Shown one piece after another: positions 2 through 21,330 of a stretch of 30,936 bases of DNA (position 1 is the first letter of the stretch; each line of letters opens with the position of its first letter). Origin of the DNA: an uncultured Verrucomicrobiota bacterium (lineage in GTDB: Bacteria; Verrucomicrobiota; Verrucomicrobiia; Limisphaerales; CAZCUL01). A program made the position numbers and the translations under genes. The stretch is taken from NCBI GenBank assembly GCA_964501475.1, contig CAZCUL010000468.1, positions 1 to 30,936 of the forward strand. The letters run 5' to 3'. Below the pieces are notes generated by a model that was given only the letters and a program-made list of their open reading frames with translations, was not told the DNA's origin and searched no databases.

Positions 2-3000
2 TTCCGCAAATATCTGCCCACCGAGACCAACGCCACCACTCGCGTCAGCATGGAATCCTTCGTCACCACCATCGAGGATTACCCCTACCCGTACGTGATC
101 GGCAACGTTTGCTGGGAATTTCCCTGCATGGTTCCGAGCGATTGGGAGGCGCACAATTTGCAGGGCTCGAATCATCCCGAAACTGTCGAGGACTGGAAAG
201 CGGCGCTGGATGCGGTTGTCATCAAGCAAGGGGTCTTCAACCTCGTTTTTCATCCGCATGGATGGATTCGCAGTGATCAGGTGATCGACCTGATCAACCA
301 TGCCGCCGAGAAATACGGTCCAAGCGTGAAGTTTCTCAGCTTTCGCGAGGCACAGGCACGGCTCGACAAGCATCTGCTCCAAGGCAACCCGCTGCGCAAT
401 CGCCACGGGCGGGACAATGGCGTCCGGCTGATCGACCTGAACCAGGACGGCTTTCAAGATGTGGTGATCGGCAATCCGGAAATGCGAAGAACGCGGCTCT
501 GGCTTCCAACGGCGGCGGCATGGGCCGAGGGCGAATTTCCCACCGACCTGGTCAGGGAGAGCAGCGGCGGGAGCCTGATCGACACTGGCGTGCGCTTTGG
601 AGTGCTTGAGAGCAACACCGTCATGCTCGTGCGCCGGCCGGACCTTGCCGGGGCGTGGCGATTTGACGGGCAACGTTGGGCAGCGGACGGAGCCCTGCTG
701 GCCGGGCTCGAGTTGGAAGGGGAACCGGTGTTCACCGCACGGGAAGGCCGTGACCGGGGCGCGCGTTTGCGGGATCTCGATGGCGACGGCCGTTGTGAGT
801 TCATTGTGGCCAACGAAAGCCAGAACGCGGTGTTCGCGTGGTCGCCGGTGGAACGGAGTTGGCGCAAAGCAAAGTATGCGTTGCCGGAGGGCGGACGGAT
901 TGTCGGCGCCGAAGGGCATGATGCGGGCCTGCGGTGGGTGGACCTCAACGAGGACGGTCACGACGATATCCTTTTCTCCAATCCAGAGCGATGCGGAGTG
1001 TATCTCTTCGTTCCAAAGCCGGTACCGCATCTGGGCTGGGAACGGGGCTGGACCCGGGAAATCCGAAGCGGCAAAGCGGGCGAGGACCGGGCCATCCCGC
1101 AGATCGTGCGCGAAGGTCCGCATCGGAATAACGGCGTCTGGTTCCACTCACGGCGCCTCTGGATGCAAAACGAGGACACCGCCCATCTGCCGGACAAGGT
1201 GGACCGGCGTTCATTTGCGGAACTGCTGACGTTTGAAGCGCCGCCGGCGCGAACGCCCGAGGAATCGTTGAAAGCGCTTCAGGTGCGCCCGGGATTCAAA
1301 GTGGAGTTGGCCGCATCCGAGCCGCTGGTGATGGATCCCGTGGCTTTTGACTGGGGCGCAGACGGCAGGCTTTGGATTGTGGAGATGCGCGATTACCCGA
1401 GCGGGCTGGACGGGCGGGGCAAGCCGGGCGGCCGAGTACGCTTTCTTGAGGATCGGGATGGCGATGGCCGCTACGAGGAATCGACCATCTTCCTGGATGA
1501 CATCAACTTTCCTACCGGCCTGATGCCATGGCGTGAAGGAATTCTGGTAAGCGCCGCGCCGGACATTTTTTACGCCGAAGACACCAACGGAGACGGCAAA
1601 GCTGACAAGCGAGTTGTGCTTTTCAGCGGTTTCAACGAAGGCAACCAGCAGCATCGTGTGAATGGATTTGAGCTTGGTCTCGATGGGTGGGTTTACGGAG
1701 CCAACGGCGACAGCGGCGGGAATATCCACAGTGTGGGCGCGGTCAAGGCCCGCGATCCGGAGCGCACGAATGCCCCGCCCATCGACCTGCGCGGGCACGA
1801 TTTCCGATTCCGCCCGGACGAAGGCGTTTTCGAGACCGTGGAAGGCCAGACGCAGTTTGGGCGGCACCGGGACGATTGGGGGAACTGGTTTGGGAACAAC
1901 AACCCGGCCTGGCTTTGGCATTATTGGATTCCGGAACAATATCTCCGACGGAACCCGCATCTGGCCCTTCGCAGCACCAAGGAATCCCTGGCCAATTACC
2001 CCGGCAATACGCGCGTGTTTGCCGTGAGCCAGCCGCTGGCGCGCTTCAATTGGCCGGGGCTGCTCAACATCCTCACTTCAGCAAACAGCCCCACGCCTTA
2101 TCGTGACGAACTTTTCGGGCCGGACTTCGCCTCGACTATTTTCATCAGCGAGCCCGCCAACAACCTCGTTCACCGCGAGGTGCTCGATCCGTCCGGCGTC
2201 ACGTTTACGAGCCGCCGCGCCTTGGACGAACAGGACCGCGAGTTCCTGGCGTCCGCCGACAACTGGTTTCGACCCACAATGCTCAAGACCGGCCCGGACG
2301 GCGCGCTTTATATAGCGGACATGTACCGCCTGGCAATCGAGCATCTCGAATACGCCCTGCCGGGGATGGAAAAGCAGATTGATGTTCGCGCCGGCGACGA
2401 TAAAGGGCGCCTCTACCGCGTCTATCCCGAGGCGGCTTCGCCTCGCGAGATTCGCCGCCTCGACCAGCTTGGTCCGGTGGAACTGGTGGCGGCTCTGGAC
2501 AGCCCCAACGGCTGGCAACGGGATACCGCGCAGCGCCTGTTGCTGCACGCGCGCGACCGGCGGGCGATTGATCCATTGGCGAACCTGTTCCGAACGACGC
2601 GGAATGCGAAGGCGCGCGTGCAGGCCCTTTGGACGCTTGCCGATCTGGGCGGATTGGATGCCGGCTTGTTGGATGAAGCTTTGAAGGATGCCCATCCCAT
2701 CGTGCGCGAGCATGCCGTGCGTTTGAGCGAACCGTTCGCCCAGCCGCCTCCACCTTTGGCGGGCACGCTGTCGCGTCTGGTGAATGATCCGGAAATCCGC
2801 GTTCGCTACCAGCTTGCCTTCAGCCTGGGCGAGCGCGGCGACGAAGGCGCGGGGCATGCACTGGCGGCATTGGCATTGAGAGATGCCGCTCTTCCGCAAA
2901 TGCGAACAGCCATCATGACTTCCGCGCCGAAGCATTGCGCGACGATGTTGGATGCGTTGGTCCGGCAGCACGCCGCCCGCCCGGAGGCAGTCGATCTGCT

Positions 3001-4099
3001 CGACCAAGTGCTCGCCCTGGCCGTCGCCACCAAGCAGGACGAGTCTGTTTTGCGAGCTCTCCACCAGATTGGGCGCCCGCGCAATCGGACCTTCGCCGCC
3101 TGGCAATTCGAATCACTGGCCGGTTTCCTCGAAGCGCTCGATCGACGCGGCGACTCATTCTCGAAATTTAAACTGCGCATGCAGCCTCAGTGGCAAACAA
3201 CCGTCGAGCAGATCGATCGCGCCTTTGCCGCGGCCGGAAGAGTCGCAGGGAACTCAAGGGCCCCCGAACAAGAGCGGATCGCGGCCATTGGCTTGATGGG
3301 ACACCAGGAGGAAAGTCCGGAACAAAGCTGGCGAATGCTGGGCGACTTGCTCACGGCAAAGGAGCCGCTGGCGATTCAACAAGCCGCCTTGCGGGCCTTA
3401 AGCCGGGCGAAAGACGAGGGCGCGGCCGAGATGGTTTTGGCTCATTGGCGTCAGGTCGGCCCCGGACTGCGAAATCAGGTCCTGGGCGCCTTGCTCAGCC
3501 GTCCGGCCTGGGCCACACGCCTGCTGCGCGCGCTCGAAGCAGGAGAGATTCTGCGCCCCGAGCTTGGACCGGCCCAACAACAAAGGCTTCTTCAGCATTC
3601 GTTGGAAACCATCCGCAAACAAGCCGCCAGAATCCTGGGCGGAGTCGCTGCGGACCGACAGCAGATTCTCAAGGATTACCGGCACGTGCCGCAGTTGAAG
3701 GGGGATGCGGAGAACGGTGCGGCAATTTTTCGACAACAATGCGCGTCGTGCCACCGGTTCCGAAATGAAGGGACAACGCTGGGGCCGGATTTGGGCTCGC
3801 TCTCGGACAAGTCCGTGGAGGCGTTGTTGGTGGGCATCCTCGATCCAAACCGGTCTGTCGAAGAGACGTTTGTGAGCTATTCGGCCACGACCCGCGATGG
3901 GCGCGACTTAAGCGGGATCATCACTGCCGAAACGGCCAACAGCATCACTCTTCGGACCGCAGGCGGAATGGAGGAAATTATTTTGCGGAGCGAGGTGAAA
4001 GAGGTAAAGAGCGGCGGGTTGTCTCTCATGCCCGAAGGATTGGAAAAGGCGATTCCCCCGCAAGGCATGGCGGATTTGATCCGCTACTTGCAGAATTGA
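2..4099 (+). CDS. 5'-truncated multidomain protein: polysaccharide-deacetylase-like segment, FG-GAP/VCBS repeats, PVC-type membrane-bound dehydrogenase (glucose/sorbosone dehydrogenase-like propeller), HEAT repeats and C-terminal c-type cytochrome
   Basis: The frame is open from base 2 (FRKYLPTETNATTRVS precedes the Met at 50), so the gene starts left of the window. Motifs: VFNLVFHPHGW...KFLSF (CE4-like end); DLNQDGFQD, DLDGDGRCE and DLNEDGHDD Ca-binding repeats; PEESLKALQVRPGFKVELAASEPLVMDPVAFDWGADGRLWIVEMRDYP and WFRPTMLKTGPDGALYIADMY (PVC dehydrogenase family); VREHAVRLSE/VRYQLAFSLG HEAT-like repeats; CASCH heme motif at 3740-3754 followed by GPDL and SLMPEGLE. Confidence 0.85.
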   Translation, partial: FRKYLPTETNATTRVSMESFVTTIEDYPYPYVIGNVCWEFPCMVPSDWEAHNLQGSNHPETVEDWKAALDAVVIKQGVFNLVFHPHGWIRSDQVIDLINHAAEKYGPSVKFLSFREAQARLDKHLLQGNPLRNRHGRDNGVRLIDLNQDGFQDVVIGNPEMRRTRLWLPTAAAWAEGEFPTDLVRESSGGSLIDTGVRFGVLESNTVMLVRRPDLAGAWRFDGQRWAADGALLAGLELEGEPVFTAREGRDRGARLRDLDGDGRCEFIVANESQNAVFAWSPVERSWRKAKYALPEGGRIVGAEGHDAGLRWVDLNEDGHDDILFSNPERCGVYLFVPKPVPHLGWERGWTREIRSGKAGEDRAIPQIVREGPHRNNGVWFHSRRLWMQNEDTAHLPDKVDRRSFAELLTFEAPPARTPEESLKALQVRPGFKVELAASEPLVMDPVAFDWGADGRLWIVEMRDYPSGLDGRGKPGGRVRFLEDRDGDGRYEESTIFLDDINFPTGLMPWREGILVSAAPDIFYAEDTNGDGKADKRVVLFSGFNEGNQQHRVNGFELGLDGWVYGANGDSGGNIHSVGAVKARDPERTNAPPIDLRGHDFRFRPDEGVFETVEGQTQFGRHRDDWGNWFGNNNPAWLWHYWIPEQYLRRNPHLALRSTKESLANYPGNTRVFAVSQPLARFNWPGLLNILTSANSPTPYRDELFGPDFASTIFISEPANNLVHREVLDPSGVTFTSRRALDEQDREFLASADNWFRPTMLKTGPDGALYIADMYRLAIEHLEYALPGMEKQIDVRAGDDKGRLYRVYPEAASPREIRRLDQLGPVELVAALDSPNGWQRDTAQRLLLHARDRRAIDPLANLFRTTRNAKARVQALWTLADLGGLDAGLLDEALKDAHPIVREHAVRLSEPFAQPPPPLAGTLSRLVNDPEIRVRYQLAFSLGERGDEGAGHALAALALRDAALPQMRTAIMTSAPKHCATMLDALVRQHAARPEAVDLLDQVLALAVATKQDESVLRALHQIGRPRNRTFAAWQFESLAGFLEALDRRGDSFSKFKLRMQPQWQTTVEQIDRAFAAAGRVAGNSRAPEQERIAAIGLMGHQEESPEQSWRMLGDLLTAKEPLAIQQAALRALSRAKDEGAAEMVLAHWRQVGPGLRNQVLGALLSRPAWATRLLRALEAGEILRPELGPAQQQRLLQHSLETIRKQAARILGGVAADRQQILKDYRHVPQLKGDAENGAAIFRQQCASCHRFRNEGTTLGPDLGSLSDKSVEALLVGILDPNRSVEETFVSYSATTRDGRDLSGIITAETANSITLRTAGGMEEIILRSEVKEVKSGGLSLMPEGLEKAIPPQGMADLIRYLQN

Positions 4100-4359: not shown

Positions 4360-4387
4360 TTGTCAAGGCGGTCCGGCCCGATACGCT
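4360..4387 (+). promoter_or_regulatory. Putative sigma70-type promoter for tpsA-tpsB, with its -35 inside a short palindrome
   Basis: TTGTCA (4360-4365), 16 nt spacer, TACGCT (4382-4387), then 17 nt to the ATG at 4405. The -35 lies within GCCTTG-T-CAAGGC (4357-4369). Motif match only. Confidence 0.4.
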
Positions 4388-4404
4388 CCCGTCAGGCGAC
4401 CCCA

Positions 4405-7400
4405 ATGAACCCAAGCAGCCTCAACCGGGCTTTTGTTGTCTGCGCTGTCCATGCCTGCCTGCTGAATGCCGGCTACTCGCAGGTGATGTTGGATGGTTCC
4501 CTGGGGCCAGGCGGCCCGCTCGCCGGGCCGGACTATCAAATCGGCGCCGATCTCGGCCGTCAAATCGGGCCAAACCTTTTCCACAGTTTCAGCGAATTCA
4601 ATTTGGTCAATGGGGACGTCGCCAACTTCTCCGGGCCCGCCGAAATCGGGAACATCCTTGCACGGGTCACCGGCGGGAACGCCTCATCCATTGATGGGAC
4701 GCTCCGGTCCGACGTAACGGGAGCCAATTTGTTTTTGATCAACCCGGCCGGCGTCATGTTCGGCCAAAACGCCAGCCTGGATATCAGCGGCTCATTCGTG
4801 GTGACCACAGCCGATTATCTGCGTTTGGCAGACGGCGGCAGATTTGAGGCGCTGGAACCTTCAGCAAGCCTGCTCAGTGCGGCGCCTCCGGACGCATTCG
4901 GGTTCCTGGACAATGCCATCAACGCCATTGAATTGAATCGCGCCCAACTCCAGCTTACCGACGGCCAGTCAGTCTCTCTCGTGGGCGGCGAGGTGTCGAT
5001 GGGTCTGCTTTCGCGCCTTACGGCGCCAGCGGGGCGTGTGGCCATCACCAGTGTCGGTTCCGCAGGCGAGGTCGAAGGGATATTCGACCCGGAACCGACC
5101 TCGGCTGCACTTGGAGGAACGGTCACGCTGGGAGCGCTTTCAAGCATCAATACGGGAGCGGCGCAGGCAGATCAATCGGGGGGCGCGGTATTGATCCGGG
5201 CCGGGCGCCTGGTAATGGAGGATGCGGCGACTATCCGTTCCCATACCAGCGGCAGCGCGGACGGAGGCGAGGTCAGCATCCAGGCTGCGGAGGAGATCCT
5301 CCTCACCGAGGCCGGTCGAATTCTTACTTCCACATCCGGGGCTGGCAACGGCGGGAACATTCGGCTGAGCGCGCCCACCGTTCGGCTGGATGGGGGCGCT
5401 TCACAAGTGGCCCAGGTGGATTCGACCATTAGCGGTCCTGAGGCCACGGGAAGAGGCGGCACCATTACGGTGCAAGCCGACCGGTTGGAATGCTTCCGAG
5501 GCGGGCTCTTCAGCACTCTGACTTCTTCTCCCGGAGCCGGCGGGGACATCGAAGTGCAAGCGAGGGAGATTGTTTTTGACGGCGAGGACATCTTTTTGAC
5601 AGGCCTCGTTGCGGAGACTGACACGGATAGCGGCCCGGTCGGCAGTATATCCGTTACGACGGAACGCCTGGAGATCGGTCCCGGCGGGATCATCACTGCG
5701 ACGACATTTGGCCCTGGCCAGGGGGGGACTATCTCGATTCATGCGAATCAGATCATTTTGGACGCGCGGGGCAACGAAGCGGACCCTGCCGCCATTGTTG
5801 CCCAGGTCGGAGGGGATGGGCCGGGCGGGGCGATTCAGATCGAAACCGAGACGCTGGATTTGCTGGCGGGCGGGCAGATCAGCACTTCGACATTTGGTTC
5901 GGGCAATGGCGGACGACTCGATATCCAAGCCCAGCGCATTTCCATGGATGGGCTCGGAACAGGAATTCCAACCGGGCTCGCCTCCCAAACTGAATCCGAA
6001 GGAGGCGGCGGCAACATCGCGATCGATACCGGAGAGCTCATCATTGCGGACGGGGCGGGCATCTCGACATCCACCTTTGGCCCGGGCGATGCCGGGAACA
6101 TTTCCATACTGGCAAATGAAACGCTTATCGCCGGGCAGGGAATCCAAACCTTTACGGGGATTGCCGCGACCGCTGAACCCGGCTCCAGCGGCAATGGCGG
6201 AAACGTCTCTCTCGAATCGGAAACGGTAACAATCATCGATGTGGGTCACATCCTGACGACGACCGCGGGCTTTGGCTCGGGCGGAAACATTCTCCTCGAT
6301 GCTGAATCGCTTTCGCTCGATCGGGGCGGGTTCATTTCCGCGGAAACCTTCAGCTCCGGTCACGCCGGGAACATCGAGGTTGCGGCCGATGAAATCGATT
6401 TGAACCAGGGCGGATTGATCACCGCCACCACGTTGGGAAGCGGCGACGGAGGGAGCGTGAGTATTCGCGCCGCCATGATCCATATGGACGATTTGGGAAT
6501 GGGATTGCGCACCGGCATCGAAGCGCGCGCCCTGGACTTCTTCGGCGACGGGCGGGCGGGCGATGTCAGCGTCTCTGCCGAAGTCCTGCGCATGTTCGAG
6601 GGCGCCTCCATTTCCACGATCACGATTGGTCCGAAGAGCGCGGGCAACATCGACGTTTCAGCCGGTGAGATATTGCTCGACGGCCGTGGGACGGACACCC
6701 GGATCAGTGCTTCGACATTCTCCGAGGGGGCCGGCGGAGACATTAGTTTGGAAGTCGAGCGGCTGAATTTGCGTGACGGTGGGAACCTCACTACGGCGAC
6801 TCTCGCCGAGGGCAACGCCGGAAATATCGCGATCACAGGTCCCAACGGCGGCCTGGCAGAAGCGATTCTGCTTGATGGCGCCCTGGCTCCAGCGGCGATT
6901 CAGGCTACGTCCGGGTTTTCGAGCGGCCAGGGCGGCAACATCACTATAGGAAGCGCCGGAATAGAAGTGGTCAATGAAGGGTCGATTGTGGCTTCAACCC
7001 AAGGTGCGGGCCAGGGCGGGAATATTTCGATCACGGCAAATCGGTTCCGCCTGGATCAGGGTTCGCTGCTCAGCGCCAGCACCGGTTTCGGTTCCGGCCA
7101 GGGCGGTACGATCCGGGTGGATGGGGGAGCGAGCGTAAGCCTGGCCAATGGCAGCAGCATCAGTTCGGGCACTTTGGGAGAAGGGTTGGCCGGGACCATC
7201 ATTTTCGACATCTCGAGTTTGTCATTGGACGGGTCGGCCACCGTCGAGTCAGGGAGTCTCGGCTCAGGTTCGGCTGGAAGTTTGCAAATCGATGCTTCGG
7301 GCTCCGTTTCGTTGCGCGACCAGTCCCTGCTGAGCACCAGCTCGTTCTTCTCGGATGGCGGCGACATCACGGTCACGGCAGGGCGGAGCATCGAGTTGAG

Positions 7401-7908
7401 GTCCAGCAGCATCTCCGCTCAAGCAGCTTTGGATGGGGGAAACGTTCATTTGCAGGCGCCGCGGCTTGTTTACCTGTTTGGCAGCCAGATCACCGCGGAA
7501 GCCGGTAACAACGGAGGCAACATCACGATTGATCCCACCTTCGTGGTTCTGGACCACAGCCTCATCAACGCCAATGCGATCTTCGGCAACGGGGGGAACA
7601 TCAATATCATCTCGGATTTCTTTTTGCAGAACGACAGCGTCATTACCGCTTCCTCCGAATTCGGTTTTGCCGGCAGCGTGGACATCACCGCGCCGGACGT
7701 GGACCTGAGCGGAAGTTTGACGCCGCTGGCGGTGGTGCTGCTCAGCGGCGCATCGCAGTTGCCCGAACATTGCGCCCGCATGGTGCCGGGCGACGTCAGC
7801 AGCTTTATTGTGCTGGGCCGCGGCGGGCTGCCCATCGTCCCCGGGGGATGGTTGCCCAGTTTTGGCGCGACTCCTCCGAGAAAGGAGAAGCAGGCGGATG
7901 GCTGGTAA
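4405..7908 (+). CDS. Filamentous haemagglutinin-like two-partner secretion exoprotein (TpsA): TPS domain plus beta-helix repeats, about 1167 aa
   Basis: Sec signal MNPSSLNRAFVVCAVHACLLNAGYS|QV, which favours the ATG at 4405 over the track start at 4360. Haemagglutination-activity/TPS domain motifs NLFHSFSEFNL, ILARVTGGNASSIDG and LFLINPAGVMFG. More than 20 Gly-rich repeats of the type I(S/T)xxTxGxGxGGxIxIxA. Adjacent to a TpsB gene. Confidence 0.92.
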   Translation: MNPSSLNRAFVVCAVHACLLNAGYSQVMLDGSLGPGGPLAGPDYQIGADLGRQIGPNLFHSFSEFNLVNGDVANFSGPAEIGNILARVTGGNASSIDGTLRSDVTGANLFLINPAGVMFGQNASLDISGSFVVTTADYLRLADGGRFEALEPSASLLSAAPPDAFGFLDNAINAIELNRAQLQLTDGQSVSLVGGEVSMGLLSRLTAPAGRVAITSVGSAGEVEGIFDPEPTSAALGGTVTLGALSSINTGAAQADQSGGAVLIRAGRLVMEDAATIRSHTSGSADGGEVSIQAAEEILLTEAGRILTSTSGAGNGGNIRLSAPTVRLDGGASQVAQVDSTISGPEATGRGGTITVQADRLECFRGGLFSTLTSSPGAGGDIEVQAREIVFDGEDIFLTGLVAETDTDSGPVGSISVTTERLEIGPGGIITATTFGPGQGGTISIHANQIILDARGNEADPAAIVAQVGGDGPGGAIQIETETLDLLAGGQISTSTFGSGNGGRLDIQAQRISMDGLGTGIPTGLASQTESEGGGGNIAIDTGELIIADGAGISTSTFGPGDAGNISILANETLIAGQGIQTFTGIAATAEPGSSGNGGNVSLESETVTIIDVGHILTTTAGFGSGGNILLDAESLSLDRGGFISAETFSSGHAGNIEVAADEIDLNQGGLITATTLGSGDGGSVSIRAAMIHMDDLGMGLRTGIEARALDFFGDGRAGDVSVSAEVLRMFEGASISTITIGPKSAGNIDVSAGEILLDGRGTDTRISASTFSEGAGGDISLEVERLNLRDGGNLTTATLAEGNAGNIAITGPNGGLAEAILLDGALAPAAIQATSGFSSGQGGNITIGSAGIEVVNEGSIVASTQGAGQGGNISITANRFRLDQGSLLSASTGFGSGQGGTIRVDGGASVSLANGSSISSGTLGEGLAGTIIFDISSLSLDGSATVESGSLGSGSAGSLQIDASGSVSLRDQSLLSTSSFFSDGGDITVTAGRSIELRSSSISAQAALDGGNVHLQAPRLVYLFGSQITAEAGNNGGNITIDPTFVVLDHSLINANAIFGNGGNINIISDFFLQNDSVITASSEFGFAGSVDITAPDVDLSGSLTPLAVVLLSGASQLPEHCARMVPGDVSSFIVLGRGGLPIVPGGWLPSFGATPPRKEKQADGW

Positions 7909-9667
7909 AGCCAGGGGCGGATTCGGGCGTCTCTTCAGGCCAGGCAGCCGGTATGCCGAGGTCCATCTCTTCTTCAGCGGAAGAAAAATCAGAGCCTTCT
8001 TACGCCGGCCGCCACCATTCCTGGGATGGAGTGGAGACGCGCATCTCCGGTTCTGGCTGGCATTGCTTCTTTCTCTTGCAACAGTCGGTGTCTTCGCGCA
8101 GGAGAAACCGCCTGCGGCGGCGCCGCAAGCGGCCCGGCAAGAGCAAAAGCTATCCGACGCGCCGCGCGTCGTGGTGCGCGAATTTCGTTTCGAGGGAAAC
8201 ACCGTGTTCACCGGCGCGGAACTGGCCGATGTGGTCGCCTCTTACCTGAACCGCCCCATCCAGACCGAAGACCTCGAAGAAGCGCGCCGCGCCTTGACGC
8301 TGCACTATGTCAACCGCGGCTACATCAACTCGGGCGCGCTTCTGGAGGATCAACCGGTGGCGGACGGTATCATCACGTTTAGGATTGTGGAAGGACGGCT
8401 CGACGAAGTTCAGGTGGAAGGCAACCGCTGGTTGCGTGACAGCTATATCCGGCCGCGCATTCGCCGCGGAGCCGGGCCGCCCTTGAACATGCGCAGCCTC
8501 AGTCAGGAATTGCTGCTCTTGAAAGAGAATCCCACGATCAAAAGCGTGAACGCAGAGTTGCGGCCCGGCCCGGAACGCGGCAGCAGCTTGCTGGACGTGA
8601 AAGTCACGGAGGAGCTTCCCTTCAGGCTCGGCTTTCAAGTCCGCAACGATCGCCCGCCCAGCGTGGGCGCGGAGTTGTTCGAGCTGCTGGCTGCGCATCA
8701 AAGTGTCCTGGGTTACAGCGACGCGCTCTCGTTGCAATACGGAATTCTTCAGCGCAGCGATAACGGCGCCGAGTTCTCGGAGCTGGACAACCTGGCGGTC
8801 AGTTACGCCGTGCCGGTGACGCCGCGGGATACCACTCTCCAGCTTTTTTATTCGCGCAATAACTATGCGGTCATCGAGGAGCCGTTCGACCAGTTGGATA
8901 TTACGAGCGAATCGACGACTTACGGCGTGAGCATCCGCCAACCGGTTTTCAAATCGACCCGGCGCCAGATCAACCTGGGGCTGTCGGGAGAACGCCGGCA
9001 GAGCAAGACGTTTTTGTTCGACGAGCCCTTCTCGTTTTCGCCGGGAGCGGTGGAGGGCGAATCGACCGTGAGCGTGCTTCGTCTGGTGGCGGAATGGATT
9101 GAACGGAGCCAAAAGCAGGTGATTGCATTTCGTTCCACCGCCAGCGTGGGCGTTGACGTGTTGGACAGCACCGATAATGGCACCTCTCGCGATGGAAAAT
9201 TCTTCTCCTGGCAAAGCCAGGGGCAATATGTGCGGCGCCTCTTTGGCACTTCAGCGGAATTGATCCTGAGCGCGACCGGCCAGTGGGCCAATGACCCGCT
9301 CCTCTCACTCGAGCAATTCAGCATCGGCGGTCTCAACACCGTGCGCGGTTACCGGGAGAACCAGATTGTGCGCGACACGGGCGTGGTTGGATCGGCCGAA
9401 GTGCGTGTCCCGATCTTCAAAGGGCGGGCTGGGAATCCCATCCTGCAGATCGCGCCCTTCTTCGATTACGGGATCGGTTGGAATGTCGATAGTCCGACGC
9501 CGGATCCATCGGACATTGCCAGCGCCGGCCTCGGGCTGCTCTTCGCTCCGACAAAAAAGATTCAAGGCCGTATCTACTGGGGCTACGCCTTCCGCGACTT
9601 CGACACCGACGACGAAGACCTCCAGGATCACGGCATCCACTTCAAGCTCTCGGCGTTCATCTTTTAG
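7898..9667 (+). CDS. ShlB/FhaC/HecB-family outer-membrane transporter (TpsB, Omp85 superfamily)
   Basis: POTRA-like VVVREFRFEGNTVF...LTLHYVNRGYINSGA...ITFRIVEGRLDEVQVEGN; barrel loop motif FSIGGLNTVRGY; terminal Phe. I chose the in-frame ATG at 7898 because AGGAG lies 10 nt upstream; it overlaps the tpsA end by 11 nt. The exact start is uncertain. Confidence 0.93.
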   Translation: MAGKARGGFGRLFRPGSRYAEVHLFFSGRKIRAFLRRPPPFLGWSGDAHLRFWLALLLSLATVGVFAQEKPPAAAPQAARQEQKLSDAPRVVVREFRFEGNTVFTGAELADVVASYLNRPIQTEDLEEARRALTLHYVNRGYINSGALLEDQPVADGIITFRIVEGRLDEVQVEGNRWLRDSYIRPRIRRGAGPPLNMRSLSQELLLLKENPTIKSVNAELRPGPERGSSLLDVKVTEELPFRLGFQVRNDRPPSVGAELFELLAAHQSVLGYSDALSLQYGILQRSDNGAEFSELDNLAVSYAVPVTPRDTTLQLFYSRNNYAVIEEPFDQLDITSESTTYGVSIRQPVFKSTRRQINLGLSGERRQSKTFLFDEPFSFSPGAVEGESTVSVLRLVAEWIERSQKQVIAFRSTASVGVDVLDSTDNGTSRDGKFFSWQSQGQYVRRLFGTSAELILSATGQWANDPLLSLEQFSIGGLNTVRGYRENQIVRDTGVVGSAEVRVPIFKGRAGNPILQIAPFFDYGIGWNVDSPTPDPSDIASAGLGLLFAPTKKIQGRIYWGYAFRDFDTDDEDLQDHGIHFKLSAFIF

Positions 9668-9763
9668 CTGGACTCCTCTGGCCAGTGAGCGGCCCGTCAA
9701 TGAAACCCCTTTAAAGAGCCGGAGCGTCCTCACACCGCTGCTGCCAGGTGGGAGAAGGCCTGT

Positions 9764-10510
9764 TTATTGAGAGCTCTCGTCCGCATCGGCTGCTTCTGCC
9801 AAACCGACCTGCCTTAAGAGTCCGGCGCGGGTGCGCCGCCACTCTGGATTGTCCGGATCGGACTCGGTCAGTTCGCCAAGTGCATCCAAGGCGTCGTACC
9901 AAAGACCGGCCTGCGCGTAGGTTGCGGGGCGTTCGCCGGGGGCAACGCCGGTGAGCTTTTCAGCAGTCTGTTGTTCCAGGGGGGCGCGTTTGATGACGCC
10001 ACTGGCCACAATGTCTTTTGAGCGATTCTCCGGATCGGGCACGACCGAAACGGACCAGCGATACTCGATGCCCGGCGCCAATTTCACATTGTGCCGGCTC
10101 AAATCGATTTTGCGAATCTTCCCCTGGCCGGCTTCCGCCAGCGGGATTTCCAGGAGAGGAGCGATCTCCTGCTCGCTGATGAGCGTGAACTCCATCCGCG
10201 TCTTCGTGGGGCCTGATTGATACCAGAACAAAACGGGCGATTCCCGGCTGGTCAGGGCGGCATGGTCCGGCGCCAAAACCAGCAACCGCGGCCATTCATC
10301 GTCAGCCCCGCGCGACCCGGCGTCCACCCGGACTTTTGGCGCCCCCAGGAGCGGTGGCACGTAAACGACGCGATTGGTGGCCACAGGCCCTTTGGCTTGC
10401 GGACTTTTCTGCTGGACCGGCCGGGCCTGCCGCTTCTCGGCCGCCGAGGCGGCGAGTGAAAGAGCCAGCCACACGGCCAGCGATAGGGATTGGAATCGAA
10501 CAGAGTTCAT
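9764..10510 (-). CDS. Exported DUF928-family protein
   Basis: Signal peptide MNSVRFQSLSLAVWLALSLAASA|AE. Family-like motifs YVPP..GAP..RVDAGSRG, LLVLAP...LT....PVLFWY, L.PG.EYRW...V, and YAQAGLWYDALD.L..L....P.....W..LL.QVGL. Its ATG overlaps the cyclase TGA (ATGA). Confidence 0.82.
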   Translation of the reverse strand: MNSVRFQSLSLAVWLALSLAASAAEKRQARPVQQKSPQAKGPVATNRVVYVPPLLGAPKVRVDAGSRGADDEWPRLLVLAPDHAALTSRESPVLFWYQSGPTKTRMEFTLISEQEIAPLLEIPLAEAGQGKIRKIDLSRHNVKLAPGIEYRWSVSVVPDPENRSKDIVASGVIKRAPLEQQTAEKLTGVAPGERPATYAQAGLWYDALDALGELTESDPDNPEWRRTRAGLLRQVGLAEAADADESSQ

Positions 10511-12441
10511 GTCGTTTCTTTCTCTCCAAAAATCTGAAAGACCTTAACTTTCTGCGCTTTCCCTTTCAAGACGAACGAACCGGCCTCTTTTGCGCTGAAT
10601 CGATCCGAAATCAGCGTCCAGGTCGGTTCGCCCACAAGGACGCGGCAATGAGGCAAAGGCGATTCGGGCGCGTTGACAGTGCGGTCAAAACTTTCGAGAC
10701 GGGAAGCTGTGTTTACCGAGTCGCCCACGACTGTAAACTTCAATCGCTCGCGGCTTCCCAGGCTGCCCGTCACCACCGCTCCCGTGAAAATGCCCACCCT
10801 CATCTCCGCGGTGGGCTTGCCCGCCTCGCGCCAGCGGACATTCAGTTCTGCCAGCGCTCTCCCCATGCCCAGGGCGGCTTCGACCGCCTGAACTGCATCG
10901 TCACGAATTTGACCGGCAGAGGTGCGCGGAACCGGAATGCCAAAAATGGCCATAATGCCGTCTCCGGTGTACTCGTTCAACACCCCGCCGCATTTCAAAA
11001 TCTCCTCGGTCATCACCTCCATATATTCGTTGAGCCAATTCATCATGAAGGCCGGTTCCATCTTTTCGGAAACAGTGGTGAATCCTGCCAGGTCCGTGAA
11101 CAGGATCGTAGCGGTCAGCGACTGCGGGCGCAGGCGATGCCCTTCCATGAAGTTACCGCGATGCTCCCAGATCTCCCGGGCGATCTGAGGCGAGACGTGC
11201 TTGCTGAATAATTGCATGAGCACCATCCGGTCGCGGCGTTCGCGGTAGTATTGGAACGCAGTGCTCATGACGGCCCCTGGAACAAAGGCGGCCGCAGCCG
11301 GCGCCGCCACAATCCACGAATTCATCGCCAGTCCGATCCACGCCGCTCCCGTCAGGATGCAAATGCCGCCGGCGAGTAAAAGGATCACTCTCCAGGGAGA
11401 ACGAATCTGGAAGCCCACCCCCACACCGGCAATCGCCCAAAGCAATATCCACCCCGCCTCGACCCATTCCGGCCAGACCTTCAAAGATTTATCACCCTGC
11501 AGCGCCTGGCGGATCAATTGGTCGATCAAATGCCCATGCAATTCGATGCCATAAGTCACGCGCCGAAGCGGGGTGCTGAAATAATCCTTCACGCTCCGCG
11601 CCGTGACGCCAACAACGGCGATTCGGTCTTTGAGCGTTCCTTGCGGCAAGCGGTTTTCCAACACCTCGGTCAGTGAATACGTTTCAAATTTCGCCGGCCC
11701 CCTGAAGTCGAGAAGAACCTGGTAGCCGCCCGAATCCATGTTCACGTAAGGACCATGATTCGGCCCCAGCCGCGGCAGAACCCGCTTGCCTAACTGCAGA
11801 TCGCCGGGGTTTTCGGCGCTCGGCTGCGGCTCCACACCTTCGGCGCTCAGGTAAAGCAACGCCAATTGCAACGCCAGCCCGGAGTAGTAATTCGTATCCT
11901 TGCTCAGGTAGAGCAGGCCGCGCCGAACCTTATCATCAATCCCTGCATCGGCCGGGAAATCATTGAAGCCGACTCGCTCGGGCCAGGCCGCGAAAAAGGG
12001 TGGTGGCGGAATTCCCGAACTCAACTCGTCGCCGAACTTTTCAATTGCGATGATGTGGGGATGAGCGGCAAAGACCGCATCGAGCCGCGCTCTTCCAATG
12101 CCCGACCGCGGCACTGGAATATCACGATAGAGGTCCAGCCCGATGGATCGCGGTTGCCCGGCTGCCAACCTCTCGAGGAGATCCGCCAGAACCTCGTCCT
12201 CGAGAGCCCAGCCGCCAAATCGCGGATGTTGGATGTCCTCCTCGGTAATGCCAATGAGCACCACCGGAGAAGCGTCAACGGCAGACCGGTTGCGCCATTT
12301 GACGAACTGGTCGTAAAGCCGGAGATCGACGGTCTGCAGCCAGCCTTGACGCCAGAAAAGGAGCGCGAGGCAAAAGGCGGCGGCTCCAATGGCCATGCTT
12401 GCCCCCACGGTCCACCAGGCCTGGCGCCGGGCGCGTGTCAT
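10507..12441 (-). CDS. CHASE2-domain class III nucleotide cyclase, with guanylyl-cyclase-type specificity residues
   Basis: N-terminal TM helix; CHASE2 motifs (VVLIGITEEDIQ, SIGLDLYRD, RIAVVG......DYFSTP, GIELHGHLIDQL); three further TM helices; then the catalytic domain ATILFTDLAGFT (Asp450), NEYTGDGIMAIFG (Glu490, Asp494) and KFTVVGDSVNTASRLES (Lys568, Thr570, Asn577, Arg581). Confidence 0.93.
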   Translation of the reverse strand: MTRARRQAWWTVGASMAIGAAAFCLALLFWRQGWLQTVDLRLYDQFVKWRNRSAVDASPVVLIGITEEDIQHPRFGGWALEDEVLADLLERLAAGQPRSIGLDLYRDIPVPRSGIGRARLDAVFAAHPHIIAIEKFGDELSSGIPPPPFFAAWPERVGFNDFPADAGIDDKVRRGLLYLSKDTNYYSGLALQLALLYLSAEGVEPQPSAENPGDLQLGKRVLPRLGPNHGPYVNMDSGGYQVLLDFRGPAKFETYSLTEVLENRLPQGTLKDRIAVVGVTARSVKDYFSTPLRRVTYGIELHGHLIDQLIRQALQGDKSLKVWPEWVEAGWILLWAIAGVGVGFQIRSPWRVILLLAGGICILTGAAWIGLAMNSWIVAAPAAAAFVPGAVMSTAFQYYRERRDRMVLMQLFSKHVSPQIAREIWEHRGNFMEGHRLRPQSLTATILFTDLAGFTTVSEKMEPAFMMNWLNEYMEVMTEEILKCGGVLNEYTGDGIMAIFGIPVPRTSAGQIRDDAVQAVEAALGMGRALAELNVRWREAGKPTAEMRVGIFTGAVVTGSLGSRERLKFTVVGDSVNTASRLESFDRTVNAPESPLPHCRVLVGEPTWTLISDRFSAKEAGSFVLKGKAQKVKVFQIFGEKETT

Positions 12442-12598
12442 CTCTTTCCCCTCGGGGGTGGGGCAGGGCCGGCCAGGAAAAGGAGAACGGGCTCGGAGTT
12501 TTTTTGACCGTTGATCCGGACGGGCCGGGCGCGCCGTCCTGCGCTCGATTCGGTTTTACCGCCCTGCCGTCGCCCGAGAGTGAACGGGATCATGCCGT

Positions 12599-14914
12599 TC
12601 AAAGCCAGTTTCCAATCAAGAGGTATGGCGACCAATAGTAGGGATGGCCGTAGCGCGGGTCGCTGATGAATTGGAGCTGCGCCAATTGCAACGCCCGCGC
12701 TTTCGATGCGGACTCCAGCTCGAGCTGCTTGTAGAACTCCGTCACTAATGTCGCTGAGGATTGATCGTTCACGGACCAAAGCGTAGCCAGGGCGCTGCGC
12801 GCGCCCGCCTTGAAGGCAACGCCAGCCAGACCCAGAGCCGCGCGTTCGTCGCCCGCCGCCGTCTGACAGGCGCTCAGGGTCAGCAACTCCACCGGTTGCC
12901 CGCGAAACTTTCGCGGTTTGATCAGTCGCTCGAGGTCGTTCAAGCTCAGCCGGTCATTGTAGGTCAGCAGATAAGTGCTGGTGGGATCACGGCTGTTCTG
13001 GCCGAACTCCGCATGCGAAGCCATGTGAACCACCGAGTAGGGCTTCCCCTGGAATTCGGATTCCAGTTTCGCCTTCTGAAACTGCCGGTTCAGGAGGAGG
13101 TCTCCGCCAAACAAGCGGTGGATTTGATCCAGCTCATCATTCACGTAAGGAAGCGCGGACTTGCCCTGCACCGCGTCGGAAACTCCGGTCAACAAAAGAG
13201 CCATGGCGATGGTTTGCAGCCGCTTCGGCTCCATCAGCCGCAACCCGGGACTGATCGCCACCGCAAAACGCTCGACCAGGAACTTCTCCCCATCATGGAG
13301 CGCTGCCGGCGGAATCAGCCGCAACGCGCCGTCCGGAACGAAGACGAGCGTCTTGACTTGATTCGACTCCAACAGCGGCCTGATCGGCTCAATAATCGCC
13401 GCATGAATTGTCTGCGCCAGCGGCAGATACTCGCGCGTCTGTCGCTTCTCCAGCTTCCGGCGCAGTTCGGTCGCGCTCTTCCCCAATTCATCTTGAGTGA
13501 CCGGGCTCTCTCGCCGCTCCAATCCATCTTGCAACCCGACCAGTAACTCTGTCCTGTCCGGCAGCGGAATGACATAGATGACCGCCGTGTCCGCCGCGAT
13601 CTGTTCAATGCCGCTCACTCTGGATAACGCGATGTTGACGCAATCGTCCTGCAAATAGTCCTCGAGCTCGGCGTTCTTGAGCAGCTCCATCGTGTCGCGC
13701 GCTTCCCGAAGAAGCGCCTGCCCCCTGTTCGCGTCCGGTGCGGTCTTTGCCTGCTTTAGAAGCAAATCTGTCCGCTCCAGAAAAAGCCCTCCAAACCCTT
13801 CCCGAAACGATTCAGGGCGAATCTCGTTTCCCGCGGCCGTCATGAGGTCATGCCGCACCCCTTGAAGATGTTCGATGGCCCGGCGGTACGCTGCCAGCGC
13901 GGCGTCAATATCTCCCTCATCGCGCAGCAACCGGGCCAGATTCCATTCCCATCGCATCAAGGCGTCCGGAAGCGGGGTCCGGCTTCCGCTCCAGATGGCC
14001 ATGCGCGTGAACCGTAAAGCCTCGTCGCGCCGCCCACCGGCGTAGGCCCCTTCGCCCAGGTAGCCCAAGGCATACGTCCGGAGGCGTTCATCCTTTAACT
14101 TTTCCGCTGCCGCCAGCGCCTCCTGATAGCACCCTGTGGCGGCATCGAGCGCTTCTTCACCACCGATTTCCTGCAAGGTGCGTCCGACAGAAATGAGGCG
14201 GCTGGCTTGCTCATGCGAAGCCTCCAATTGTTTTATCTTTCGCTCCGCTTCGCGCGCGGCCGTCATCGCTTCTTCCCTATTTCCGGCCATCAGTAGAGCC
14301 CGCGCCTTGTTTGCCAGCGCAAGTGGCTCGATCAGCTTCGCGTCCGCACGCCTCGCCGCGGTTGCCGCCTGATCATAAAAGTCCACCGCTTCGTCGAATC
14401 GCCGCTCGACCAGCCGAAGATTTCCCAGATTATTCAAAATGCTCGCCCGGGCGGCCCCTTCGCCCAGTTCGCCGGCCGCGATCAAAGCGGATTGCAAAAC
14501 CTGTTTGGCCTGCGCTGTCGCGCCCTGAAGGGTGTGAAGAACCCCTGTCAATTCAGCAGCGGCAGCGACCGATTTCGCGTCGCCCGCCTGGCGCGCCGAT
14601 TCCGCCGCCTCCGTTGCCGTCTGCAAGGCAAGCCGCCCCTGGCCCATCGCCTGATACGTGTAGGCCAGCTTGAGCATGCTCTCGATTTGACGGCTCGATT
14701 CGCCGGCTTTGCCGAAGAGCCGGGCCGCCTCCTGCCACGACTTCGCGGCCGCGCCAAAGTCGCCGCGCTCGGAACCCTGTTGGCCCGCCTCAAAATGATC
14801 CGACGCTGAAAAAGCCGAGTGTTTTGAGGCGGCAGGAGATGCCGGAGCCAGAAGGCAGACGACTGACAAAGCTGTCCAGGAGGCAAGAAGAATTGGGAGA
14901 GGGCGTGGCTTCAC
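12599..14914 (-). CDS. Signal-peptide-bearing TPR-repeat CHAT-domain (caspase/HetF-like) peptidase
   Basis: GTG start. Hydrophobic N-terminus MKPRPLPILLASWTALSVVCLLAPASPA. TPR-like repeats such as ASILNNLGNLRLVERRFDEAVDFYDQA. CHAT motifs LVFVPDGALRLIPPAAL, VVHMASHAEF (His634, 13013-13015), LLTLSACQTA (Cys683, 12866-12868), ALATLWSVND and HPYYWSPYLLIGNWL. Confidence 0.93.
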   Translation of the reverse strand: MKPRPLPILLASWTALSVVCLLAPASPAASKHSAFSASDHFEAGQQGSERGDFGAAAKSWQEAARLFGKAGESSRQIESMLKLAYTYQAMGQGRLALQTATEAAESARQAGDAKSVAAAAELTGVLHTLQGATAQAKQVLQSALIAAGELGEGAARASILNNLGNLRLVERRFDEAVDFYDQAATAARRADAKLIEPLALANKARALLMAGNREEAMTAAREAERKIKQLEASHEQASRLISVGRTLQEIGGEEALDAATGCYQEALAAAEKLKDERLRTYALGYLGEGAYAGGRRDEALRFTRMAIWSGSRTPLPDALMRWEWNLARLLRDEGDIDAALAAYRRAIEHLQGVRHDLMTAAGNEIRPESFREGFGGLFLERTDLLLKQAKTAPDANRGQALLREARDTMELLKNAELEDYLQDDCVNIALSRVSGIEQIAADTAVIYVIPLPDRTELLVGLQDGLERRESPVTQDELGKSATELRRKLEKRQTREYLPLAQTIHAAIIEPIRPLLESNQVKTLVFVPDGALRLIPPAALHDGEKFLVERFAVAISPGLRLMEPKRLQTIAMALLLTGVSDAVQGKSALPYVNDELDQIHRLFGGDLLLNRQFQKAKLESEFQGKPYSVVHMASHAEFGQNSRDPTSTYLLTYNDRLSLNDLERLIKPRKFRGQPVELLTLSACQTAAGDERAALGLAGVAFKAGARSALATLWSVNDQSSATLVTEFYKQLELESASKARALQLAQLQFISDPRYGHPYYWSPYLLIGNWL

Positions 14915-20218: not shown

Positions 20219-20400
20219 TTCGAATGCGGGATCGGTTTGAATCGAATGTGAATCTGGCGCGGGATGACAGGGAGAGAATTCCCCTGGATGGCGCGGCACG
20301 AATGGAATTCCTGGACCAGCGCCTGCCCGGGCACTCCAAATTACCTGGATGTGGAGGCAGGTCTCCGGAGAGGAGGGGCATTGGCAAATGCCGGGCCTGG

Positions 20401-21330
20401 ATGCTGCCGGTGCTATGCCTCATCCTGGCCGGGTGCGGTCAACGCGGCGTTTCCCCGGCGGATGCCGGACGGGATCAGGCCCGGGCGCCCGCCAGCACCC
20501 TGCCGGCCGCCGGCGGGAACCCGATGCCCGATCCAGCCGGCCTGCACAATTTGATGAAGGTATCGGACCAGATTTATTCGGGCGGTGAGCCGCATGGCGA
20601 GGAGGGATTTGAGAGCCTGAGACAGCTTGGTATAAAGACGGTGGTGAGCGTGGACGGGGCGAAGCCCAAAGTGGAATTGGCCCGCCAGCACGGCATTCGA
20701 TACGTCCACATTCCACTTGGCTACGGTGGGATATCTCAGGAAGCGGGTCAGATGTTGGCTCGAGTTGTTCGAGATGCGGAGGGGTCGTTTTACTTTCACT
20801 GCCACCACGGGAAACATCGAGGCCCGGCAGCGGTAGCGGTGGCGTGCATTGCGTCGGGAGATAGTGAAACGAAAGAGGGCGCGGCCATGCTCGAGCGGGC
20901 CGGCACCAGCAAAGATTACGCAGGCTTGTGGCGGGATGTGGAAAACTATGTTCGGCCACCGGCGGACGCCAAACTTCCAGAACTGATGGAAGCGGCCGAA
21001 GTCAGTTCGTTTATAGCGGCGATGGCACAGATCGACCGAGCCTACGATCATTTGAAGTTATGCCGCGAGGCGAACTGGAAAACGCCGCCCGATCACCCTG
21101 ATCTGGTTCCCGCGCAGGAAGCCCTGCTGTTGCAGGAAGGATTGTTTGAATCGGCAAGACATCTGGATCAGAAATATGACGAGCAGTTCAAAGTCTGGCT
21201 GACCGATGCCGAGCGGGCGGCGTCTCAATTGTTAGCCGCCTTGAAGGAGGAGAATGAGGAGGAAGCTGGCGACCGACTGAAGGTCATCGAGCAATCATGC
21301 AGGCAGTGTCATCGCCGGTATCGAAATTAG
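20401..21330 (+). CDS. Putative lipoprotein: Cys-based phosphatase/DUF442-like domain fused to a C-terminal cytochrome c'-like heme domain
   Basis: Lipobox LILAG|C. IYSGGEP....FESLRQLGIKTVVSVD and P-loop HCHHGKHR (20797-20820). Helical C-terminal domain ending CRQCHRRYRN (CxxCH at 21298-21312). The start is ambiguous: in-frame ATGs at 20224, 20302 and 20401. Confidence 0.75.
   Translation: MLPVLCLILAGCGQRGVSPADAGRDQARAPASTLPAAGGNPMPDPAGLHNLMKVSDQIYSGGEPHGEEGFESLRQLGIKTVVSVDGAKPKVELARQHGIRYVHIPLGYGGISQEAGQMLARVVRDAEGSFYFHCHHGKHRGPAAVAVACIASGDSETKEGAAMLERAGTSKDYAGLWRDVENYVRPPADAKLPELMEAAEVSSFIAAMAQIDRAYDHLKLCREANWKTPPDHPDLVPAQEALLLQEGLFESARHLDQKYDEQFKVWLTDAERAASQLLAALKEENEEEAGDRLKVIEQSCRQCHRRYRN

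Follow-up and report, generated by a model that had tools for sequence, protein, structure and literature searches.

A charge-swapped purine pocket in a CHASE2-linked class III cyclase of an uncultured verrucomicrobium: a candidate guanylyl cyclase within a conserved envelope module

To our knowledge, the proven cyclic GMP (cGMP) pathways of bacteria are very few, comprising those of Cya2, Rhodospirillum centenum, Xanthomonas and S. meliloti Clr, and Cya2 (sll0646 of Synechocystis sp. PCC 6803; PDB 2W01) is the one cGMP-making bacterial cyclase that we know to have a solved structure. We analysed a class III nucleotidyl cyclase encoded on the minus strand of a 30,936-nt stretch of DNA (hereafter the window, i.e. 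the whole of that stretch) from contig CAZCUL010000468.1 of an uncultured verrucomicrobium. Its product is of the Cya2 kind, a bacterial class III cyclase that is linked to CHASE2 and bears the Glu, and on balance we lean towards reading it as a GTP-preferring guanylyl cyclase, the best-supported interpretation of the sequence. The GcyB/GcyC-CgrA system of R. centenum and the XC_0250-XC_0249 system of Xanthomonas campestris likewise rely on class III cyclases, with cGMP as second messenger; they differ in being devoid of CHASE2 and in having other domain architectures, and each of these cyclases is tied to an identified receptor gene, whereas none was found in the window. Cya2 is a guanylyl cyclase with a CHASE2 architecture (PMC5995499) and, like the window protein, combines CHASE2, transmembrane segments and a class III domain. 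Its pocket contains a Glu-Gly pair, the Glu being helped by a supporting Lys (PMC6005667), while the Gly plays a steric role together with a Tyr (PMC6005667; PMC4215837) which itself enhances guanylyl cyclase activity (PMC4215837). A single exchange, E488K, turns the GTP-specific wild type into an ATP-specific adenylyl cyclase (PMC5995499). The classical second specificity residue, located 7 positions before the transition-state Asn, is Asp1018 in the adenylyl cyclase type, Gly562 in Cya2 and Cys566 in RhGC (PMC6005667).

The gene, its domains and the residues considered below are listed here, with positions referring to the window.

10507..12441, minus strand: gene of the 644-residue CHASE2-sensor class III nucleotidyl cyclase (intact open reading frame and Pfam)
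12349..12417, minus strand: N-terminal transmembrane helix, residues 9-31 (Kyte-Doolittle window 19, peak 2.0)
11422..12372, minus strand: periplasmic CHASE2 sensor domain, residues 24-340 (PF05226, E 2.9e-60)
11254..11466, minus strand: three predicted transmembrane helices, residues 326-396, then the linker/transducer segment LMQLFSKHVSPQIAREIW (hydropathy)
10537..11115, minus strand: catalytic class III cyclase domain, residues 443-635 (Pfam Guanylate_cyc PF00211, E 6.5e-20)
10699..11094, minus strand: span of the catalytic residues Asp450, Asp494, Arg548 (phosphate), Asn577 and Arg581
11092-11094, minus strand: Asp450, metal ligand
10972..10974, minus strand: Glu490 (GAG), purine-selecting position, where adenylyl cyclases have Lys and guanylyl cyclases Glu, four residues ahead of the metal ligand Asp494
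10960-10962, minus strand: Asp494, metal ligand
10738..10740, minus strand: Lys568 (AAG), whose charge co-varies with position 490
10732..10734, minus strand: Thr570 (ACA), canonical second specificity position, Asn577 minus 7 (alignment to CyaB 'DYT', CyaC 'DFT' and Cya2 'KYG')
10711-10713, minus strand: Asn577, transition state
10702..10704, minus strand: Ser580, at the position of the Tyr that enhances guanylyl cyclase activity in Cya2; adenylyl-cyclase-like (VNTASR against VNLTYR in Cya2)
10699-10701, minus strand: Arg581, transition state
10564-10566, minus strand: Lys626, just beyond the span of catalytic residues

The PF00211 match reached 71.9 bits, the curated cut-off being 21.9, and an AlphaFold2 model of residues 435-644 had a predicted local distance difference test score (pLDDT) of 94.9. 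Foldseek identified CyaB, CyaC and Cya2 as the nearest structures to this cyclase-homology-domain fold, with template modelling (TM) scores of 0.8-0.9. Asp450, Asp494, Asn577 and Arg581, as well as the phosphate-binding Arg548 and Lys626, align with their CyaB and Cya2 equivalents, and a dead enzyme is unlikely, all catalytic residues being intact. One helix at the N terminus and three after CHASE2 were recognised by hydropathy, and therefore the sensor is placed in the periplasm and the cyclase in the cytoplasm. The protein would thus be a catalytically competent, homodimeric class III cyclase, whose cytoplasmic catalytic domain is presumably driven by the periplasmic CHASE2 sensor. In total, 360 homologues were found at E<=1e-10, the closest showing 50% identity, and the LMQLFSKHV segment of the protein is sufficiently conserved to be used as a search pattern.

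The pocket itself departs from the adenylyl cyclase type at two positions. The two motifs concerned read N-E-Y-T-G-D (residues 489-494) and K-F-T-V-V-G-D (residues 568-574), and their phmmer alignments to PDB sequences were unambiguous and motif-anchored. In these alignments, Glu490 pairs with the Lys of CyaB (3r5g) and of CyaC (1wc0), and with Glu488 of Cya2 (2w01), 'ggvlnEYtGDgim' of the window protein standing against 'ggtidKFvGDcvm' in CyaB, 'qgtvdKFvGDaim' in CyaC and 'ggtidEFmGDgil' in Cya2. At the second motif, 'rerlKfTvvGdsvNtasRles' is matched by 'trmDyTiiGrevNlasRles' in CyaB, 'qersDfTaiGpsvNiaaRlq' in CyaC and 'ekrtKyGvvGaqvNltyRies' in Cya2, so that Lys568 equals the Lys of the Cya2 K-Y-G and the acidic residue of adenylyl cyclases. 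By spacing, it also matches the Arg of the R-Y-C in human GC-A (P-R-Y-C-L-F-G-D-T-V-N-T-A-S-R), where R-Y-C is found at a spacing identical to that of K-F-T in the window protein. In the AlphaFold2 model, Glu490 lies in strand 487-492, while Lys568 and Thr570 occupy positions i and i+2 of strand 567-572, on the same face. The sequence of 6fht, a Cya2 E488K construct, carries Lys at the position equivalent to Glu490 as its sole difference there, with K-Y-G unchanged. These data bear out most of a first-pass annotation of this DNA, which had (i) placed Glu490, Lys568, Asp450, Asp494, Asn577 and Arg581 at codons where all six are exactly found, (ii) described the metal and transition-state residues as intact, and (iii) assigned Glu490 to the purine-selecting position, where both sequence-level and fold-level alignment keep it. 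Its description of Lys568 as the residue of the second motif holds in part only: Lys568 does correspond to the Lys of the Cya2 K-Y-G, but the canonical second specificity residue is Thr570.

Among solved structures, the best match was CyaB, a CHASE2-type class IIIb adenylyl cyclase of Pseudomonas aeruginosa (PDB 3R5G; E 1.2e-29, TM 0.82-0.91), which resembles the window protein in belonging to the CHASE2 family, in having Thr as second specificity residue and in the Ser preceding the transition-state Arg, and differs from it in having Lys instead of Glu490 and Asp instead of Lys568 (D-K-F-V-G-D / M-D-Y-T versus N-E-Y-T-G-D / L-K-F-T). For Cya2 (phmmer E 6.6e-25; Foldseek TM 0.83-0.88, rmsd 2.0-2.2 A, 32-33% identity), the likeness extends to the first Glu (Glu488 for Glu490), to the Lys that precedes the second specificity residue by two positions (K-Y-G versus K-F-T), and to the metal and transition-state residues, which are identical. 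In contrast, Cya2 has Gly562 and Tyr where the window protein has Thr570 and Ser580, it uses Arg450 as phosphate residue where the window protein has the canonical Arg548, and it comes from another phylum, the Glu/Lys pair of the window clade being apparently of separate origin. With the eukaryotic guanylyl cyclases (GC-A, sGC beta and RhGC; E...R-Y-C), the window protein has in common the first Glu and the character of two further residues, basic at Asn-9 and small and polar at Asn-7; it differs in showing Lys and Thr instead of Arg and Cys/Ser, at 23-26% identity, and in its class IIIb-like scaffold, its homodimeric nature and its bacterial sensor. Set against the eukaryotic pattern, Glu490 and Lys568 fit, and Thr570 is chemically Ser-like yet not the residue of that family. 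Set against the class IIIb adenylyl cyclase pattern, the second purine position conforms (Thr570) and the first does not (Glu490 instead of Lys).

Taken in this way, the usual Lys of the beta2-beta3 hairpin would be replaced in the purine pocket by Glu490, and the acidic residue lying on the beta5 strand two positions before the class IIIb Thr would be replaced by Lys568, giving a charge-swapped pair. The arrangement would be that of Cya2, where the Glu is taken to read guanine with support of the Lys, and would mirror the E...R-Y-C of eukaryotic guanylyl cyclases. Because the Glu/Lys pair is that of Cya2 and mirrors the eukaryotic one, the most likely product of the window cyclase would be 3',5'-cGMP. 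The Cys or Ser of other guanylyl cyclases is believed to donate to guanine O6 (PMC7384201), and the hydroxyl of Thr570 is a plausible donor to the same atom; since it can donate there, we infer that the Glu/Lys/Thr triad is compatible with GTP. The enzyme may discriminate less strictly than Cya2, since the Gly and Tyr of the latter are Thr570 and Ser580 here.

To examine the two positions across the family, triads at 490/568/570 were read from an alignment of 120 CHASE2-cyclase homologues, and the set was enlarged to 265 sequences by 145 representatives taken from a library of 1.84 billion proteins clustered at 50%. The D/D/N/R catalytic quartet is kept in 140 of the 145 representatives. The majority motifs among the 120 homologues, [DNE]-K-[YF]-[IV]-G-D and E-Y-T-V-I-G-D, agree with those reported as usual by the first-pass annotation, D-K-(F/Y)-I-G-D and (D/E)-Y-T-V-I-G-D. 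The triads of the 120 homologues fell into (i) K/E/T (n = 50), (ii) D/K/T (n = 26), (iii) Q/E/(A,V,L) (n = 12), (iv) E/K/T, as in the window protein (n = 11), (v) R/E/x (n = 7), and (vi) N/K/T (n = 3), with minor types making up the remainder. For the 490/568 pair alone, the 265 sequences comprised K/E (n = 119), D/K (n = 53), Q/E (n = 19), and E/K, R/E and K/D (n = 15 each), while K/K, E/E, D/D and E/D were never encountered among them. Lys or Arg occupied position 568 in 39 of the 43 homologues with an acid at 490, versus 3 of the 77 others (Fisher P = 2e-23, a value uncorrected for phylogeny, which kinship makes overstate the independence of the sequences). The reciprocal swap pointed out in the first-pass annotation is therefore a genuine and recurrent covariation in the homologues, and this charge covariation argues that residues 490 and 568 would physically interact and be selected as a unit.

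The coupled change appears in several separate clades, requiring 12 parsimony steps on a crude neighbour-joining tree built with the 490/568 specificity columns masked. The window protein clusters with its nearest relatives P0002 (E/K/T; 50% identity) and P0003 (E/K/A; 49%), both of which carry E/K too. Outside this trio, its cyclase domain is up to 56% identical to K/E/T types and no more than 49% to other E/K or D/K sequences. Because the K/E sequences are the closer ones, the window clade probably made the E/K swap independently, from ancestors of the adenylyl cyclase type. Glu490 and Lys568 are each a single G<->A transition (AAG<->GAG) away from the adenylyl cyclase state, and neutral combinations do exist (Q/E, K/Q, E/Q, N/K and K/N), which could be intermediates of the swap. 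A sequencing error or single-nucleotide polymorphism was ruled out, since two coordinated codon changes would be needed and the closest relatives share both. E/K/T and E/K/A were found in metagenome proteins only, and no E/K/T relative occurred among the best 80 loci of a scan of GTDB species-representative genomes.

Several variants were seen alongside. Asp/Lys/Thr is the commonest form lacking Lys at the first position (about 20% of the 265 sequences), being present in Scalindua, Nitrospira/Nitrospirales, deltaproteobacteria and Zixibacteria (loci L001-L004, L008-L014, L019-L023, L025, L029 and L034; proteins P0022, P0036 and others), and Glu and Asp at position 490 interchange inside one clade. 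Three distant CHASE2-cyclases, from Desulfobacteraceae (L039), an uncultured bacterium (L041) and Rokubacteria (L043), display a Cya2-like first Glu and second Gly, with Ser or Ala in place of the supporting Lys.

Only two of the four Cya2 determinants are present in the window protein (Glu and Lys), and a number of observations weigh against a GTP preference. Firstly, the two absent determinants (Gly, here Thr570, and Tyr, here Ser580) are both replaced by residues of the adenylyl cyclase type; Thr570 in particular is that of class IIIb adenylyl cyclases, whereas Cya2 has Gly and eukaryotic guanylyl cyclases Cys or Ser. Secondly, the identification of the literature's 'supporting Lys' of Cya2 with the beta5 Lys is our own, inferred from the alignment and from the design of BlgC. 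Thirdly, Cya2 separates GTP from ATP by turnover and not by affinity (PMC4284465), and discrimination of that kind is not predictable from sequence. Fourthly, as two engineered enzymes show, a grafted Glu leaves other scaffolds ATP-preferring or leaky. One is BlgC (bPGC), a guanylyl cyclase made from the Beggiatoa cyclase bPAC by K197E/D265K/T267G, which is weakly active and only about 7:1 selective for GTP over ATP (PMC4569695). The other is the K101E/D157T variant of Ma1120, an unrelated scaffold, whose guanylyl cyclase activity rises several-fold while kcat/Km still favours ATP (3.16 vs 0.23 x10^6, about 14-fold; PMC4215837). Lastly, none of 20 open reading frames in the window encodes a cNMP_binding, GAF or phosphodiesterase protein. 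BlgC speaks on the other side as well: its Glu and Lys were introduced at positions equivalent to 490 and 568 (K197, D265 and T267 being mapped to 490, 568 and 570 by pattern and by a calculation in which 5m27 is taken to carry a 3-residue tag), and it shows that an E/K pair can move a class IIIb adenylyl cyclase towards GTP. It differs from the window protein in being artificial and in having also needed the Thr to Gly exchange, which is absent here.

The alternative that best survives these considerations is that of an adenylyl cyclase, or of a dual-specificity enzyme forming both cyclic AMP (cAMP) and cGMP, in which Glu490 and Lys568 would mainly build a structural salt bridge and Thr570 and Ser580 would keep ATP; we regard it as a serious possibility, albeit a rather unlikely one. 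Thr570 and Ser580 equal the adenylyl cyclase majority of the family, the closest sequences outside the small clade of the window protein are all K/E/T types, and the orthologous module of another verrucomicrobium (L027) has a cyclase of the Lys type (K/E/A). To these are added the persisting ATP preference of Ma1120 K101E/D157T and the 1 cAMP that BlgC makes per 4-7 cGMP. However, Ma1120 belongs to a different subclass and is without the supporting Lys, the position equivalent to 490 sets specificity on its own in Cya2, the nearest characterised scaffold, and a strictly kept double change that recurs in several clades is hard to explain without functional consequence. Very improbably, in our view, the catalytic domain makes another product (e.g. 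a cyclic pyrimidine or cyclic IMP) or is a non-catalytic regulatory partner in its CHAT/DUF928/two-partner-secretion module, as the unusual variability of position 490 (K, D, E, Q, R, N, S), suggestive of diversification beyond adenine and guanine, and the uncharacterised partner genes might allow, whereas the catalytic set is intact (two Asp, Arg548, Asn577, Arg581 and Lys626), the purine-pocket residues fit known guanylyl cyclase patterns and we saw no feature typical of another class of product.

We therefore return to the guanylyl cyclase reading, and offer GTP preference as a prediction and not as a conclusion, because Glu is not sufficient on every scaffold and because Thr570 and Ser580 are adenylyl-cyclase-like. 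In the same way, the GTP-specific enzyme announced by the first-pass annotation is retained for its Glu/Lys pair, as in Cya2, and loses its strictness to Thr570, Ser580 and the scaffolds on which Glu did not suffice. Other points raised there agree with what we found: the Cya2 Glu is assisted by a lysine (PMC6005667) and E488K does yield an adenylyl cyclase (PMC5995499); related sequences bear the label 'adenylate cyclase' or 'adenylate/guanylate cyclase', as had been expected of automated pipelines; and our literature search, in line with its remark that no such system was known there, found no cGMP work on bacteria of the Planctomycetota-Verrucomicrobiota-Chlamydiota (PVC) group. Compared with Cya2, the novelty lies in a second shell of Thr/Ser where Cya2 has Gly/Tyr, in a phylum new to this kind of enzyme and in an origin that appears independent. 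Ryu and colleagues reportedly surveyed bacterial guanylyl cyclases in 2015, and triads of this type may already be among those treated there.

In its operon, ordered TPR-CHAT, 157-nt gap, cyclase, DUF928, the cyclase gene is the second of three, and a two-partner secretion (TPS) pair at 4360..9667 on the plus strand converges on this operon. The neighbouring genes are as follows.

12599..14914, minus strand: TPR-CHAT protein (caspase-like protease fold) with a signal-peptide-like N-terminus (PF12770, E 5.6e-57, plus TPR families)
9764..10510, minus strand: DUF928 protein with a signal-peptide-like N-terminus (PF06051, E 5.8e-36)
4360-7908, plus strand: TPS-domain exoprotein (PF05860)
7808-9667, plus strand: ShlB/FhaC-type transporter, open reading frame as listed (PF03865 and POTRA_2)

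The TPR-CHAT gene, on the same strand 157 nt upstream of the cyclase, is a conserved neighbour. The start codon of DUF928 and the stop codon of the cyclase share a 4-nt overlap (ATGA), by which the two genes are translationally coupled; DUF928 adjoins the cyclase in most related loci, and in some relatives CHASE2, DUF928 and the cyclase are fused in one protein. The listed ShlB frame starts with TTG at 7808 and overlaps the end of the TPS-domain frame by about 100 nt (7808-7908); its first ~100 residues are Arg/Gly-rich and look non-genic, the real start being probably further downstream. This five-gene module (TPR-CHAT, CHASE2-cyclase, DUF928, ShlB/FhaC and TPS; 4360-14914 in the window) recurs in at least six phyla (loci L002, L004, L006, L008, L009, L011, L020, L026, L027, L028, L035, L081, L083 and L084). 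It surrounds both closest E/K relatives (L081 and L083) and a second E/K/T clade (L084), and is also present, irrespective of the triad, in Scalindua, Nitrospira, deltaproteobacteria, Zixibacteria, cyanobacteria, Rhodospirillaceae and the K/E/A verrucomicrobium L027. A literature search on DUF928, CHASE2 and CHAT together returned nothing relevant. The cyclase may accordingly be viewed as the putative cytoplasmic output of a conserved envelope module made of an exported TPR-CHAT protein, DUF928 and a two-partner-secretion pair, and the output nucleotide of this module appears to have been re-specified repeatedly.

Cyclic-nucleotide genes were seen beside some related cyclases. At locus L085 (1-7298), an E/K/T cyclase adjoins a GAF-histidine kinase, six tandem single-domain response regulators and a class-II phosphodiesterase; tblastn with the phosphodiesterase and GAF proteins of this locus gave no match in the window. 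In Nitrospira sp. T9 (L014, 2329-13619), the genes on either side of a D/K/T cyclase encode a CRP-family regulator, a class-II phosphodiesterase, two GAF kinases and a GAF-sigma54 activator. The class-II enzyme of these cassettes is a cyclic nucleotide phosphodiesterase of metallo-beta-lactamase fold, with homologues in L019, L021, L025 and L034. Because they adjoin CRP, GAF and class-II phosphodiesterase genes, these cyclases show, from cassettes of essentially one lineage, that acid/Lys/Thr cyclases work in real cyclic-nucleotide pathways. The CRP beside the Nitrospira D/K/T cyclase has a CAP-like 'RS' phosphate-binding cassette, which is uninformative on cAMP versus cGMP.

As regards the host, the pyruvate kinase gene at 28661-30070 on the minus strand is 74-78% identical at the protein level to its best matches, the named ones (73-76%) being Verrucomicrobiota, including subdivision 3 / Limisphaerales, which accords with the PVC host implied in the first-pass annotation. 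The product of the first open reading frame of the window (50-4099, plus strand) is 1349 residues long and combines FG-GAP and HEAT repeats with DUF7133 and, at its C terminus, a cytochrome c domain; it is a typical large exported protein of PVC type. At 20224-21330 on the plus strand, a 368-residue frame displays weak matches to dual-specificity phosphatase (PTP-NADK / Tc-R-P) and, C-terminally, to cytochrome c', an unusual combination in which every match scores close to its curated threshold or under it.

Overall, three findings most deserve to be followed: the covariation in charge across the family, the frequent, uncharacterised Asp/Lys/Thr form, and the CHAT/CHASE2/DUF928/TPS module with its conservation. 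An acid at 490 with Lys at 568 is a simple sequence rule, flagging about 25% of the large CHASE2-cyclase family, including the cyclases of Nitrospira and of anammox Scalindua, and the conserved module may define what CHASE2 domains sense. If the window protein is a true guanylyl cyclase, then cGMP signalling would extend to Verrucomicrobiota, a Glu/Lys/Thr triad would be enough without the Gly and Tyr of Cya2, and the rules for annotating thousands of 'adenylate/guanylate cyclase' genes would be refined. More tentatively, and as a possibility that we consider doubtful at present, the 490/568 swap could be a recurrent two-transition switch by which cGMP takes the place of cAMP as the output of the envelope module, or some other product does so in its Asp/Lys/Thr form. 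Acid/Lys module cyclases occur in Verrucomicrobiota, Planctomycetota (Scalindua), Nitrospirota, Desulfobacterota and Zixibacteria. Under such a switch, roughly a quarter of the module cyclases would not be adenylyl cyclases, the CRP / GAF / class-II phosphodiesterase cassettes beside the D/K/T cyclases of Nitrospira would be its receptors, and cGMP signalling among environmental bacteria would reach far beyond what the proven cases suggest.

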